From IMG/VR virus record IMGVR_UViG_3300042508_000526: DNA of 64,000 nt; one strand, written 5' to 3'. This DNA comes from a virus (taxonomy: Duplodnaviria > Caudoviricetes). Under the pieces are notes generated by a model. That model was not told where the DNA came from and ran no database searches. It worked only from the letters and a program-made list of their open reading frames with translations. The translations under genes and the position numbers were made by a program. How positions within the stretch are numbered: position 1 is the stretch's first letter; each line of letters opens with the position of its first letter. Positions 17,127 through 25,321 of the stretch are shown piece by piece.

Positions 17127-17140
17127 AAATTATATCAAAG

Positions 17141-17213
17141 AGCCGGCGGCCGGACTCGAACCGGCGACCTGCTGATTACAAATCAGCAGCTCTACCAACT
17201 GAGCTACACCGGC
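17141..17213 (-). tRNA. trnT: tRNA-Thr(UGU)
   Basis: GCCGGTG acceptor, D arm TAGCTCAGTTGGTAGAGC, GCTGA-TTTGTAA-TCAGC, GGTTCGAGTCC; CCA not encoded. Confidence 0.95.
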
Positions 17214-18050: not shown

Positions 18051-20655
18051 TGTTGGTTAAAAGGAATTGATCGCCCCAGTCCGTTGTGATCGATATTCCC
18101 GGCATTCCTCGTATTGATTCTTCTGCTATAAGTGCGCCTGATTTTAGCAGCAACTCTTTAATTAGCAACCAGTTAGGTATGACTGTTTTGCTGCTATAAA
18201 AATAACGATCTACCGCCCTCTGATTCAACCACCAATAGTCTTTTTTTCTTACAAGGTAGTTTGCGGCTTGCGACCGATTTCTTGGGTGCGGCACAATTGT
18301 TAGCTGGCGGTTATTAACGGCACGACCTAACTCTAGTAACAAGGCGGTATGCGCGTTTTCGTCGGTAACTAACTGATTTAGCGCACAATCTAGCTGAAAA
18401 CTGCTGCCGTACGTTTCTGTTAACCAGCCGGCTAAATCTGACAAAACTGCCCGCGTCATGTTTACACTGCCCGCCGCTATCGTCATGCGCTGTTTTAATG
18501 CCCGCTGAATGTAGGCTGGCAAAACGTGCCTAAACACACTAAAGTCTGCCGCGCCAACAGACGCGCTGCCGGTAATTACCTGCCACCCGTAGCTCGGGGC
18601 GATGGCTGCTGCGGGCTGTGTTATTTTGACAAATATCGGATACGCGTGACACCGCGGTATTACGGTGCCGTAACTCGCGTCGTCGAAGGTACTCGCGGCA
18701 AATAACGGCCAGTCCGCGTTTTCTGCCAGCTCTGCGAGATTGCGACTAACGTGACTGCGGTGCAACGTTGTCGAGTGCTTATAACTGCAGGCTAGTTCGT
18801 TGCCCAGCATTGCCGCCAACGTAAAGGACGCGCCTGACATACCTGTCGCGGTGGGTTCTTTGCGTACAACCGGCGCGATTAAATCTGTGGCAATTGCGGC
18901 GAACACTGTCCATATAAACGCATTATCCGGGCTGGGCGTTAAAAACTGTTTGATGGCCGGCGGTGCAACTGGCGTGGGCTCAGGAAAGGCTGCAGATTGT
19001 TTTTTTGTTTTCGGCAGCATTGTCGGCGTAACTGCGCCGTCATTAGTCAGCTCAAACTGCGCAAAACGAAATACGCCTGCGCGGTCGTCCCAGCCTAGAC
19101 GACTTGAAATGCTAATGAGTTCTGGCTTATTTAACTCAATAGATATCAAGTGGCTGCGTTTGTTCCACATGTTGTCAAAAACGACAAGCTTCTTTTTTGG
19201 CGCCATGTATGCTTGTGCGTACGCCAGCAAGCCCATACCTTCAATACGCTTAGCGCTGTCTGAGAATTCAAATTGCTCGCCGTCGATGTGGATGACGCCG
19301 CTGTATGTTTTGTGCCCGTTATCTTCTTGCACAATTTTTGTGATTGCGATATTGGCCGAACAGATTCTGTGATTTGCGCTATTCCACCAACCGTCACCGC
19401 GCGCAATGACGACGCGTCGGCGGGCAGTCTGTATAGAGCCCAGCGGCACAGCCAACGTCGCATGCGACAGAACCCGATCTGCGAACCCGGCTGAAAAATT
19501 GTCATTCATTTTTTTCAAAAACGGCGCCAGCTTGTCCGGCGATACTGTCAGCCGTGTGGCGAAAGACTGGGCCGCGATTTCGCTCATTGGTTTCAGCGCG
19601 TTATGCAGGCTGACCTGCCACGTTGTCGCCGCGTATCGAATGTTTGTGAGTTGTTTGAGCGGGTTATCTTGTTCTCGTGTTTTTTTGTGCAACGGTGGCG
19701 TGACGCACACATACCCGCGGGCAGTGGCCGCGCGGCTGATCAGCTCCGGCGAAATCGCCGCGCTTTGGAACAGGCGCGTAATCGGCGCAAATGCCAACCA
19801 GTTCTGCCCGTAACTGTTTGCTTCCGGCCCGGTATAGCTCGCGGCAATTGGCAGCAACTCTACGCCGCGTTTCAACTGCTCGCACTGCATTTGCAGCGCC
19901 CACATAGGCGAGTCAACAACGAATTGCGTATTTTTTAGTATCTCCGGCGCCGGCTTTAACATAGCGTCAAGGAGAAAGTAACCGGCTTCGGGTCTTTTGC
20001 GTTTGTATCCGTTAACGGGAATGTAGTTGTACCGCGCGTCAAAATCTTCGCTGTACTGGACGAGCATTGCTCCGGCGAAACGGCCGGGAAGATCGTAGAA
20101 CGGGAACACGATGCTTGCGCCGCCGCGGCGAAAGTTTTTAGGGCACGGCCGCCCTATCTCTGCGCATACTTTGGCTATCTGTTCTTTGTGCGCTACGCCA
20201 ACAAAACCGCGCGCGTTTATTTCGCTGCTTACGCCGAGTTCGCGCAGGCGGCAGGCAATTACGTCGTCGCCGTGGCTCCAAATTTGCGGTTCCGTATCCG
20301 CCCAAAAATCTTGCAGGTGTGCTTGCTTTTGAACCGCCCGGCTATACTCATTAATAGCCGTTGTTTTATCGGCAGCGCTAATCAGCCGTAAATCAACAAA
20401 TTTGTCGATTGCGTCGGCTATGCTTGTATTCCATATTGACGCCGCAAAGGTTATGATATCTCCATGGGCCCCGCATGTATTACAGTGCAGCCAGACGCCG
20501 TTCGCGGCAATGTCATCAAACAAGTACAGCGTGTTTTGATGACAGCTTGGACACGCAACAATATTTGGGAATGACGGATTTTCCGGCGCGACGCCTAATG
20601 CCGATAGGGCGTGCATATGGTGATGTCGGCCGATTAAACAGGTAGGAAACCCCAT
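18028..20655 (-). CDS. Primase-helicase-like protein, apparently catalytically degenerate
   Basis: N-terminal CPSC/CNTC Zn domain; IVFPFYDLPGRFAG DnaG-like segment; Toprim-like and DUF927-like regions with altered motifs. Confidence 0.55.
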   Translation of the reverse strand: MGFPTCLIGRHHHMHALSALGVAPENPSFPNIVACPSCHQNTLYLFDDIAANGVWLHCNTCGAHGDIITFAASIWNTSIADAIDKFVDLRLISAADKTTAINEYSRAVQKQAHLQDFWADTEPQIWSHGDDVIACRLRELGVSSEINARGFVGVAHKEQIAKVCAEIGRPCPKNFRRGGASIVFPFYDLPGRFAGAMLVQYSEDFDARYNYIPVNGYKRKRPEAGYFLLDAMLKPAPEILKNTQFVVDSPMWALQMQCEQLKRGVELLPIAASYTGPEANSYGQNWLAFAPITRLFQSAAISPELISRAATARGYVCVTPPLHKKTREQDNPLKQLTNIRYAATTWQVSLHNALKPMSEIAAQSFATRLTVSPDKLAPFLKKMNDNFSAGFADRVLSHATLAVPLGSIQTARRRVVIARGDGWWNSANHRICSANIAITKIVQEDNGHKTYSGVIHIDGEQFEFSDSAKRIEGMGLLAYAQAYMAPKKKLVVFDNMWNKRSHLISIELNKPELISISSRLGWDDRAGVFRFAQFELTNDGAVTPTMLPKTKKQSAAFPEPTPVAPPAIKQFLTPSPDNAFIWTVFAAIATDLIAPVVRKEPTATGMSGASFTLAAMLGNELACSYKHSTTLHRSHVSRNLAELAENADWPLFAASTFDDASYGTVIPRCHAYPIFVKITQPAAAIAPSYGWQVITGSASVGAADFSVFRHVLPAYIQRALKQRMTIAAGSVNMTRAVLSDLAGWLTETYGSSFQLDCALNQLVTDENAHTALLLELGRAVNNRQLTIVPHPRNRSQAANYLVRKKDYWWLNQRAVDRYFYSSKTVIPNWLLIKELLLKSGALIAEESIRGMPGISITTDWGDQFLLTNSEARDIG

Positions 20656-21838
20656 GACAAATATTCCACTCGATCAGGCACACGACGTCAGCGGTCGCGA
20701 ACTGCACCGGCTAACTACGCTTTTTACGTGCCCGGATTTTGTTAAATCTGCGTCGCAGGATCGCACGCACGGCACCGACGAGTTGCCGCGGCACGTCTAT
20801 GCCGATCAATACAATAAACTTTACCCGTGTCATTCCGCCGCTGCAACGTGGCTCTCCGCGCTGTACTTCGCCGATAAGAAGGCTGAGTTTGCTGAAAAGC
20901 GCGCAAACGAGATCCAAGCCCGCATCCACGGCGCGGCACGTTTCTTTGGTATTTTGGGCTCGGTGACGGAGCTGGAAGAGAAGGTAGCCGCGGCAAACTC
21001 TACTGACCTCAACAGTCTTCCAGACAGCGAGTTTGCCATTGTCTGGTGCGGCGAGAACGGCGCCGGCAAGGAGCGGCATTGGCCGTTGCGTAATGCCACA
21101 GAAGTAAAATTTGCGGCAGCGCATTTTAAAAACTTTCGCGATCAGTTTGTGTTTGCTGACCGTCACACGATTGCAAACAAAATTCTTGAAAAGGCTGCGC
21201 AGTATGACGCGGATGTGTCCGAAGCGGACGGCTCGTTAGAGCTGGCTGCGGGTCTGGGCGCGTGCGCGGCAAAAGTTGCCAGCGAAATGATTAAAGACCG
21301 CGTACGGCTCACTCAGCGCAGCCATGGTGCGCTGGCCAGTGAGTTGTCCAAATTAGCCGCCGCTATCGACAAGAACCCGGAACGGGCTCGCTCAGTCGAT
21401 ATGCGTCTTAAGTTGGCGAGCGCGGTCGATGACTTTGATCGCAGTACTAACCTGCACCGGCTGTACGACGCTGGTGGTTTGCCCCGACCCGAAGAAGTGT
21501 TGTTTGCCATCACGGAGAAGGTAGCGCGCGACTTCATGGAAGAAAACGTCGAGACAACGACGGGTAACGTGTACGCGCTCACGGACTTGGAAAAGCTAGC
21601 AGTTGAAGACGTTCGCGCGTGGCTCGGCGACGAGTTTGCAGACGCTGTGACCGCGGGCGGCGTTTACATGGACCGCGAAAAACTGGCGGCGATTGTGCCG
21701 ACGCTTGACCGCGGTATGGCGTCTATGCTGGATCGGCTTATGTCCGAAAAAAGCGCAGGCGCTGTTGTGAAGGCCGCCGAGGCTAACGACACGCTGCTGT
21801 CGCTTGCGCGACTGCACGAACTGGCTAGCGAGGGCTGA
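20654..21838 (+). CDS. Hypothetical phage protein with a duplicated (Y/W)P-x7-8-A motif
   Basis: LYPCHSAAATWLSALYF and HWPLRNATEVKFAAAHF; AGGTAGGA RBS. Confidence 0.7.
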   Translation: MTNIPLDQAHDVSGRELHRLTTLFTCPDFVKSASQDRTHGTDELPRHVYADQYNKLYPCHSAAATWLSALYFADKKAEFAEKRANEIQARIHGAARFFGILGSVTELEEKVAAANSTDLNSLPDSEFAIVWCGENGAGKERHWPLRNATEVKFAAAHFKNFRDQFVFADRHTIANKILEKAAQYDADVSEADGSLELAAGLGACAAKVASEMIKDRVRLTQRSHGALASELSKLAAAIDKNPERARSVDMRLKLASAVDDFDRSTNLHRLYDAGGLPRPEEVLFAITEKVARDFMEENVETTTGNVYALTDLEKLAVEDVRAWLGDEFADAVTAGGVYMDREKLAAIVPTLDRGMASMLDRLMSEKSAGAVVKAAEANDTLLSLARLHELASEG

Positions 21839-21847
21839 ACAAATCGA

Positions 21848-21921
21848 CGTGGCGTAGAGCAGTCTGGTAGCTCGCCAGCCTCATAAGCTGGAGGCCGTCG
21901 GTTCGAATCCGACCGCCACTA
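21848..21921 (+). tRNA. tRNA-Met(CAU), initiator-like body
   Basis: C1xU72 mismatch, A11-U24 pair, fMet-type D arm GAGCAGTCTGGTAGCTC, anticodon arm CCAGC-CTCATAA-GCTGG; CCA not encoded. Confidence 0.9.
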
Positions 21922-22176
21922 TTCTTCTTTTGCGTTGCCGTCTTCAACGATGCCAAGAACTTCGTTGAAGAATTCTATGCAACGCCTGCCGGCAATGCCG
22001 CTCTTTTCTGTTGCCGGCGGCTGCGCTGGCTGCGCGGCGGGGTCAATATTTTGCGATGTTAATCCGAGGCGCTGGCACTCTTCTAGATACATTTGCCAGT
22101 TTTCGTAATCTTCTCTATCGCGCGGATTTTCGTACGGTACGTATGGGTTATCAAGCAGATGGTCGTTCCAGCCCAT
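21919..22176 (-). CDS. Hypothetical protein
   Basis: 85 aa; stop codon overlaps the tRNA-Met 3' end. Confidence 0.55.
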   Translation of the reverse strand: MGWNDHLLDNPYVPYENPRDREDYENWQMYLEECQRLGLTSQNIDPAAQPAQPPATEKSGIAGRRCIEFFNEVLGIVEDGNAKEE

Positions 22177-22345
22177 TTTTGCGCTTCTTCTTTTTTAGAG
22201 TGCGCAGCTCGCCGCGAATGACAGTCACGGCAAGCGGCGCGGTAACACCGATCTTTACGCGGTCACCGCATATGTCCAGTATCTTCAGCACAACATTGTC
22301 GCCGATTACAACCTCTTCTTCTTTTTTTCGTGAAATTACGAGCAC
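22151..22345 (-). CDS. csrA: Carbon storage regulator CsrA/RsmA
   Basis: MLVISRK.EE.VVIGD...GDRVKIGVTAP..V.VIRGEL; R6 and R44 equivalents retained. Confidence 0.92.
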   Translation of the reverse strand: MLVISRKKEEEVVIGDNVVLKILDICGDRVKIGVTAPLAVTVIRGELRTLKKKKRKNGLERPSA

Positions 22346-25241: not shown

Positions 25242-25321
25242 CCGCCGCCCCGCGCTGCCTAAGAGCATGGAGCCCGCGGGCCACGTGGTACGTGACCCTT
25301 CAGCAGACCGCAGGGCGGCGG
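25242..25321 (-). ncRNA. Candidate structured RNA hairpin
   Basis: CCGCCGCCC/GGGCGGCGG outer stem extended by GCG and CTGC/GCAG pairs; preceded by the same TAGGCTGCG(G)ATC motif as the 24631 hairpin. Confidence 0.4.

Follow-up and report, generated by a model that had tools for sequence, protein, structure and literature searches.

A phage carries, within the 64,000-nucleotide stretch of DNA analyzed here (the window), a tRNA gene with a CAU anticodon that probably encodes a functional initiator tRNA of the tRNAfMet type, which would add to or replace the initiator pool of its host. Its anticodon stem is formed by A29:U41, G30:C40 and C31:G39, referred to below as the AGC stem after bases 29 to 31. 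This stem is a recurrent form of initiator in many unrelated phages and prophages, not a defect. The window belongs to a complete virus record of 203,206 bp that has direct terminal repeats and a G+C content of 54.7%; this lake phage record contains nine tRNAs according to ARAGORN.

ARAGORN called the gene as tRNA-Met(cat) with boundaries exactly at those listed in Table 1, and the Rfam model RF00005 matched it with a score of 65.2 bits, as opposed to a gathering score of 29 (E value of 2e-14). The 1:72 position was the sole non-standard pair in the Rfam alignment. Read from the sequence, the cloverleaf is CGTGGCG-TA-GAGC-AGTCTGGTA-GCTC-G-CCAGC-CTCATAA-GCTGG-AGGCC-GTCGG-TTCGAAT-CCGAC-CGCCACT-A.

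Table 1. Positions of the tRNA(CAU) gene, its structural elements and neighboring features in the window
Feature	Position	Strand	Description	Basis
Upstream ORF	20654..21838	+	394 aa, no assigned function; stop codon 9 nt ahead of the tRNA	
tRNA(CAU), initiator type	21848..21921	+	74 nt, no encoded CCA	ARAGORN, Rfam RF00005, sequence identity
Acceptor stem, 5' strand	21848..21854	+	CGTGGCG; C1 unpaired vs U72 (21920), then G2:C71, U3:A70, G4:C69	Sequence; Rfam alignment
D arm	21857..21873	+	GAGC-AGTCTGGTA-GCTC; A11 (21858):U24 (21872); D loop is that of E. coli metY	Sequence; comparison with metY (L438)
Anticodon arm	21875..21891	+	CCAGC-CTCATAA-GCTGG; anticodon CAT at 21882-21884	Sequence
Anticodon stem pairs	21877/21889, 21878/21888, 21879/21887	+	A29:U41, G30:C40, C31:G39, respectively	Sequence
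A38/G39	21886/21887	+		Sequence
Acceptor stem, 3' strand, and discriminator	21914..21921	+	CGCCACT and A73 (21921), then TTC, no CCA	Sequence
Region of convergent ORF and csrA	21919-22345	-	ORF of 85 aa; its end overlaps the tRNA 3' end by 3 nt	
csrA	22151-22345	-	Phage csrA, followed by the 85-aa ORF	
Second tRNA	17140-17213	-		
DUF3800-VIII RNA (RF03075)	25244-25319	-	Between tail-related genes	Rfam match

We compared these bases with the known determinants of initiator identity. Formylation is directed chiefly by an unpaired 1:72 and, as minor transformylase determinants, by A73, G2:C71, C3:G70 and G4:C69, and a purine 11:pyrimidine 24 pair is a further mark of initiators (PMC9976931). The phage tRNA has the unpaired 1:72 and three of the four minor determinants (A73, G2:C71 and G4:C69), with U:A at 3:70 in place of C3:G70. 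The purine 11:pyrimidine 24 mark is present as A11:U24, and the CAU anticodon lies within a CUCAUAA loop. At the level of the whole molecule, the phage tRNA was 73-81% identical to initiators as opposed to 50-58% identical to the Ile2-like and elongator-like CAU tRNAs of the same bacterial genomes. E. coli genomes contained a median of four matches per genome at about 81% identity, and the best E. coli match, flanked by argG and rimP, is metY. These marks, the identities and the match to metY give good support to the initiator-type reading. An earlier note on this DNA had proposed it from C1xU72 and a purine 11:pyrimidine 24 pair, both of which can be read directly from the sequence.

The likeness to E. 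coli tRNAfMet (metY/metZWV) amounts to 73-75% identity and includes an identical D loop (AGTCTGGTA), A11:U24, the unpaired 1:72, A73, G2:C71, G4:C69, the CUCAUAA loop and G30:C40, as well as a 5-nt variable loop of the form AGGNC and the type of T arm. The phage tRNA differs in having C1xU72 and U3:A70 rather than C1xA72 and C3:G70, in having A29:U41 and C31:G39 rather than G29:C41 and G31:C39, and in the lack of an encoded CCA.

Two other kinds of CAU tRNA were considered. An elongator tRNA-Met has a paired 1:72 and a pyrimidine 11:purine 24 pair within a GCTC...GAGC D stem; it was ruled out by C1xU72 and the GAGC...GCTC D stem. A tRNA-Ile2, whose C34 would be converted to lysidine by the host TilS so that it reads AUA, has a motive here. 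Seven of the nine phage tRNAs, and thus seven of the eight others, decode A-ending codons (anticodons UUG, UGU, UAG, UUC, UAC, UAA and UUU), and AUA is used 5.8 times per 1,000 codons, near the 7.6 of CUA, a codon with its own phage tRNA; a role in codon supply would therefore fit, and some phages do carry Ile2-type CAU tRNAs. The motive is, however, without structural support. Identity to Ile2-type tRNAs is only 50-58%, C1xU72 stands in place of G1:C72, and the tRNA has a purine 11:pyrimidine 24 pair, G4:C69, G12:C23 and A29:U41. None of the Ile2 features G1:C72, pyrimidine 11:purine 24, C4:G69 and C29:G41 is found; in E. coli, the determinants of tRNAIle are C4:G69, position 12:23 and C29:G41 (PMC9976931). 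Moreover, in other phages tRNAs of the AGC type adjoin a true Ile2-like or Ile(UAU) tRNA. We therefore regard an Ile2 identity as very unlikely. The preponderance of tRNAs for A-ending codons also suggests that the G+C content of the host is above the 54.7% of the phage.

Across all domains of life, initiator tRNAs are marked by three consecutive G-C pairs in the anticodon stem. In the phage tRNA, pairs 29:41, 30:40 and 31:39 are A:U, G:C and C:G, just as the earlier note had read them from the sequence. The title of that note, according to which the three G-C pairs are lacking, overstates the difference. Only 29:41 has become A-U; 31:39 is inverted yet still made of G and C, and G30:C40 is intact, the single pair that proved essential in E. 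coli. Growth of E. coli is sustained by the tRNAfMet mutants 1st-AU, 1st-UA, 3rd-CG and cg/GC/cg but not by mid-AU or mid-CG (PMC5389676), which makes G30:C40 the essential pair and G30 the crucial base (Shetty et al. 2016, PMC5389676). Given that the 1st-AU and 3rd-CG changes are each tolerated singly, there is no need to suppose that the phage tRNA has lost P-site function. The double combination au/GC/cg was absent from the mutants tested; the 1st-AU single mutant initiates more weakly in E. coli but is fully used by rhizobial ribosomes (PMC5389676).

To see which stems occur in phage-borne initiators, 118 viral stretches that match the pattern AGCTC-N6-CTCATAA-N5-AGG were sampled without selection. 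Bases 29 to 31 were AGG in 39 of these stretches, GGG in 26 or 27, UGG in 26 and AGC in 9 (about 8%), and every other combination was found at most twice. G30:C40 was kept in about 96% of the sample. Thus, in phage-borne initiator-like tRNAs the first pair varies between G:C, A:U and U:A, the third is G:C, with C:G in about 8%, and the middle pair alone is fixed. The constancy of G30:C40 is in line with the mutants, in which G30 proved essential, and extends this E. coli result to nature. The UGG stem, U29:A41/G30:C40/G31:C39 or '1st UA', made up a second frequent non-canonical class (e.g., L290, L296, L301, L312 and L315); in this class 1:72 is likewise unpaired or weak, and pair 11:24 is A11:U24.

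To define the extent of the AGC form, IMG/VR and species-representative genomes were scanned with the pattern GCTC-NNN-AGC-CTCATAA-GCT. Initiator-like tRNAs with the AGC/GCU stem were found in at least 119 viral contigs of IMG/VR and at least 120 bacterial genomes of the species-representative set, and the stem therefore forms a class. This takes the observation beyond the earlier note: the AGC stem is a recurrent phage type and not peculiar to one phage. Eighty-eight of the viral copies were well folded. All 88 had A11:U24 and 74 had A73, and their 1:72 was nearly always a mismatch, U:A or A:U. At 48 of these 88 loci the AGC tRNA was the sole tRNA.

The pattern of substitutions argues that the AGC copies are working tRNAs held under initiator-type constraints. 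In an alignment of 60 AGC tRNAs, 96.4% of the cells were paired, and compensatory double changes were found in 13 of the 21 pairs. Position 1:72 was unpaired in 30 of the tRNAs and U:A in 21, as opposed to G:C or C:G in only 2, and A11:U24 was invariant (60/60). Where a phage has more than one CAU or UAU tRNA, the partners of the AGC copy were mostly of the elongator, Ile2 or Ile(UAU) type, which suggests that the AGC tRNA fills the initiator slot.

We also asked whether the class could be a clade. Outside the anticodon arm, identity was 0.764 within the AGC class as opposed to 0.757-0.769 between classes, and a difference as large as that observed arose in 109 out of 300 permutations. With no higher similarity within than between classes, common descent as a clade was rejected. 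Thus, the stem has either been maintained over long divergence or re-evolved. A flip of the pair needs two substitutions by way of a mismatch, which hints at some advantage of the flipped pair and hence at selection.

An exact scan of metagenome contigs with the anticodon-to-T-arm half of the phage tRNA gave no match, and its 38-nt core was found in one other viral contig only (L031). The nearest relatives of the tRNA, at 85-92% identity, are held by phages and prophages of Rhizobiaceae, which may be taken as a weak hint of the host. The cultured carriers of the AGC stem are Rhizobium phage RHph_TM3_3_3, Streptomyces phage Wakanda and Pseudomonas phage LESphi2. All three have the same CCAGC-CUCAUAA-GCUGG arm and A11:U24 as the phage tRNA, and Wakanda has C1xU72 and A73 as well; the tRNA of RHph_TM3_3_3 is 91.7% identical over 60 nt. 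They differ from the phage tRNA in the acceptor and T stems. Their genomes are much smaller and partly temperate, and the tRNAs, annotated as tRNA-Met only, lie ahead of terminase or holin genes: between a NusG-like gene and the terminase in RHph_TM3_3_3, and directly ahead of the holin in LESphi2.

We next considered whether the AGC stem follows that of the host. The comparison with native stems was done on five surrogate hosts, the Agrobacterium, Rhizobium, Phaeobacter, Comamonas and Shewanella genomes matched by the AGC-stem scan. These bacteria have three to five copies of their own initiators, with the AGG stem in the alpha-proteobacteria and the GGG stem in the others. In four of the five, a follow-up pattern revealed one additional gene with the AGC stem. 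The AGC site of Shewanella escaped this pattern, and the parser obtained no tRNA fold for the locus. Prophage structural genes of the terminase, portal, baseplate or tape-measure kind were located within a few kb at all four of the AGC loci tested. Further genomes from two proteobacterial classes were without the AGC pattern: 0 of 400 had it in the class to which the Agrobacterium genome belongs, and 0 of 400 in that of the Comamonas genome. A comparison with host tRNAfMet had been suggested in the earlier note; in none of the five surrogate bacteria did the native initiators share the phage stem, a match that would have spoken against the note. Among these hosts, the AGC stem is independent of the host's own stem.

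Other bacteria with an AGC tRNA were Chthoniobacterales and one CPR genome, in which an AGG-type initiator is also present. In three Chthoniobacterales species the AGC tRNA (U1:A72, unusual D loop ACCGGTC) is near-identical and is grouped with other CAU-loop tRNAs in a small cluster (G010:C10:350920-354251 and G012:C7:4074-5446), the AGG-type initiator being located elsewhere. A 0.7-Mb Patescibacteria genome (L418, G014:C1:171668-174695) has, as judged by the loop and T-loop pattern, an AGC-stem tRNA with A1:U72 as its sole initiator-like tRNA, and this tRNA adjoins an elongator-type tRNA(CAU). In some CPR bacteria the AGC stem may be that of the native initiator.

Why phages would carry this stem can be approached from what acts on the anticodon arm. 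The most concrete candidate advantage, raised in the earlier note and plausible, is escape from nucleases of the VapC type. The C31:G39 flip, together with A29:U41, would have been selected for removing the sequence needed by tRNAfMet-cleaving PIN/VapC-type toxins or similar anticodon nucleases, which would let phage translation begin once the host initiator is cleaved. Enteric VapCs cleave tRNAfMet between A38 and C39 (PMC4105405), and VapCs recognize both sequence and structure (PMC7180214); the phage tRNA has G39 at this cut site. A G39 is found again in Klebsiella phage Sugarland, a T5-like phage whose tRNA-Met has the stem A29:U41/G30:C40/U31.G39 (L445:98-174). That the AGC stem is unlike the host initiators in five out of five surrogates, and that its class was maintained or re-evolved without being a clade outside the anticodon arm, also fits escape, and evasion of anticodon nucleases by phage tRNAs has already been proposed in general (PMC10264068). 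However, about 90% of phage-borne initiator-like tRNAs, those with the AGG, GGG or UGG stem, retain C39, and other substitutions at 31:39 are rare, contrary to simple escape. On balance, we hold selection for nuclease escape to be possible but rather doubtful. The same tentative standing is given to a broader proposal, in which phages of many bacterial phyla would keep an au/GC/cg initiator with G39 that is blind to weapons or controls directed at the anticodon arm of tRNAfMet while passing the G30:C40 check. If true, it would represent a general counter-defense at the first step of translation.

The phage tRNAs described by van den Berg et al. (2023, PMC10264068) likewise differ from the host tRNA beside a known cut site. 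In that system, the changes lie in the anticodon loop of elongator tRNAs, whereas the tRNA described here is an initiator that is altered in its stem; the same authors reported that phages mostly avoid encoding tRNA-fMet (PMC10264068).

A second explanation for the stem is altered proofreading. A weakened set of three G-C pairs would change the check that IF3 and 16S G1338/A1339 make on the P-site tRNA, and would thereby favor non-AUG or unusual phage starts or initiation under limiting host factors. The three pairs license the 30S-to-70S transition and the release of IF3, and the 1st-AU mutant is slightly defective in E. coli (PMC5389676). The phage also invests in translational control, with csrA located 230 nt away. 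However, the decisive pair G30:C40 is intact, which makes altered IF3 proofreading a weaker explanation than nuclease escape. The phage is also without an IF3, transformylase or deformylase that would form a matched system, and ATG dominates the starts of its ORFs (88 of 137 in a crude count). We thus consider altered proofreading improbable.

In its genomic setting, the gene behaves as an accessory element of this phage lineage. Terminase and tail-fiber genes lie near tRNA(CAU). The upstream 394-aa gene has 73-79% amino acid identity at seven loci of relatives, yet no tRNA was found behind it at any of these seven loci, where the DNA past the stop codon is non-homologous. Scanning metagenomes by protein led to the relatives already known from IMG/VR, and in none of them was the 394-aa gene followed by a tRNA. 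Two related lake phages, G002 and G004, have a tRNA-Met beside a tRNA-Gln at another locus. This tRNA-Met has C1xU72, A73, A11:U24 and a CTAGC/GCTAG stem, and, relative to the window copy, its acceptor, D and T stems show paired changes. The near-complete relatives G001 and G003 contain no tRNA(CAU). The gene is thus mobile and dispensable in this lineage while its special features are conserved, and for this lake phage it is an ordinary accessory tRNA.

These data also bear on whether the gene works at all. It could be a decaying or hitch-hiking copy, or else a tRNA-shaped element that serves in processing or stabilizing the 3' end of the upstream mRNA. Such readings could draw on its being missing at the matching spot in all relatives and altogether in two of them, and on its start just past the upstream stop codon, where a scan for promoters and terminators around tRNA(CAU) revealed no promoter-like site ahead of the gene. 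They are at odds with its perfect cloverleaf, which has all the bases of the tertiary interactions and scores 65 bits, with the paralogous copies of G002 and G004, which keep the identity elements via compensatory changes, and with the strong covariation across the AGC class. We find a non-working tRNA extremely improbable.

A working initiator, most likely a formylatable supplementary one served by host enzymes, would be made and used as follows. The tRNA would probably be transcribed jointly with the upstream 394-aa gene and excised by the host RNase P and 3' nucleases; since no CCA is encoded, CCA would be added by the host enzyme. The host MetRS would charge it through the CAU anticodon and A73. 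Formylation by the host transformylase would be expected from the unpaired C1xU72 together with A73, G2:C71, G4:C69 and A11:U24. The absence of a Watson-Crick pair at 1:72 blocks EF-Tu, and the 1:72 mismatch would thus keep the tRNA from this factor. It would then be placed with IF2 in the P site of the 30S subunit, where the retained G30:C40 would provide the contact found essential in E. coli. During infection, the tRNA would supplement the initiators of the host or take their place. No phage-encoded IF3_C, Formyl_trans_N, Pep_deformylase or CCA-adding PolyA_pol domain was found, and the tRNA would therefore have to rely on host enzymes.

Natural initiators that depart from the three G-C pairs have been described in alpha-proteobacteria and mycoplasmas, with the forms au/GC/GC, GC/GC/gu and au/GC/gu (Samhita 2012; Shetty 2016, PMC5389676). 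The au/GC/GC form was seen here in the Agrobacterium, Rhizobium, Phaeobacter and Chthoniobacterales genomes. The alpha-proteobacterial and mycoplasma variants and the phage tRNA have in common an A-U first pair and an intact middle G-C pair. These known natural exceptions are few, and all keep the purine:pyrimidine order at the three pairs, whereas the third pair of the phage tRNA is inverted to C:G. An inverted third pair has been reported only as the engineered mutant '3rd CG' (PMC5389676); here it is carried by phages and not in the initiator genes of the cell. A literature search found no paper on a natural au/GC/cg initiator. The analysis brings out a natural, widespread, phage-carried form of initiator with an inverted third pair. 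It offers a cheap test of whether phages protect initiation from tRNAfMet-cleaving toxins, for which LESphi2, Wakanda and RHph_TM3_3_3 are cultured carriers.

Several minor observations were made. The 3' end of tRNA(CAU) overlaps a convergent ORF that follows the phage csrA, which places an initiator tRNA beside a regulator of ribosome-binding sites; this adjacency is probably a coincidence, because the relatives carry the tRNA elsewhere. The Rfam match to DUF3800-VIII RNA scored 43.1 bits, with a gathering score of 40.2. In another viral contig (L071:1472-1624), initiator-like tRNAs(CAU) with the AGC and the UGG stem form a head-to-tail pair, and the locus also has an Ile2-like and an elongator-like CAU tRNA. 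Phages GodonK and Lak-A1 have the AGG stem. A BLAST search (77 records) suggests that the Sugarland-type tRNA is common to many T5-like Klebsiella phages, and the D stem of the Sugarland tRNA, GAGG/CCTC, is like that of the tRNA of the relatives G002 and G004.
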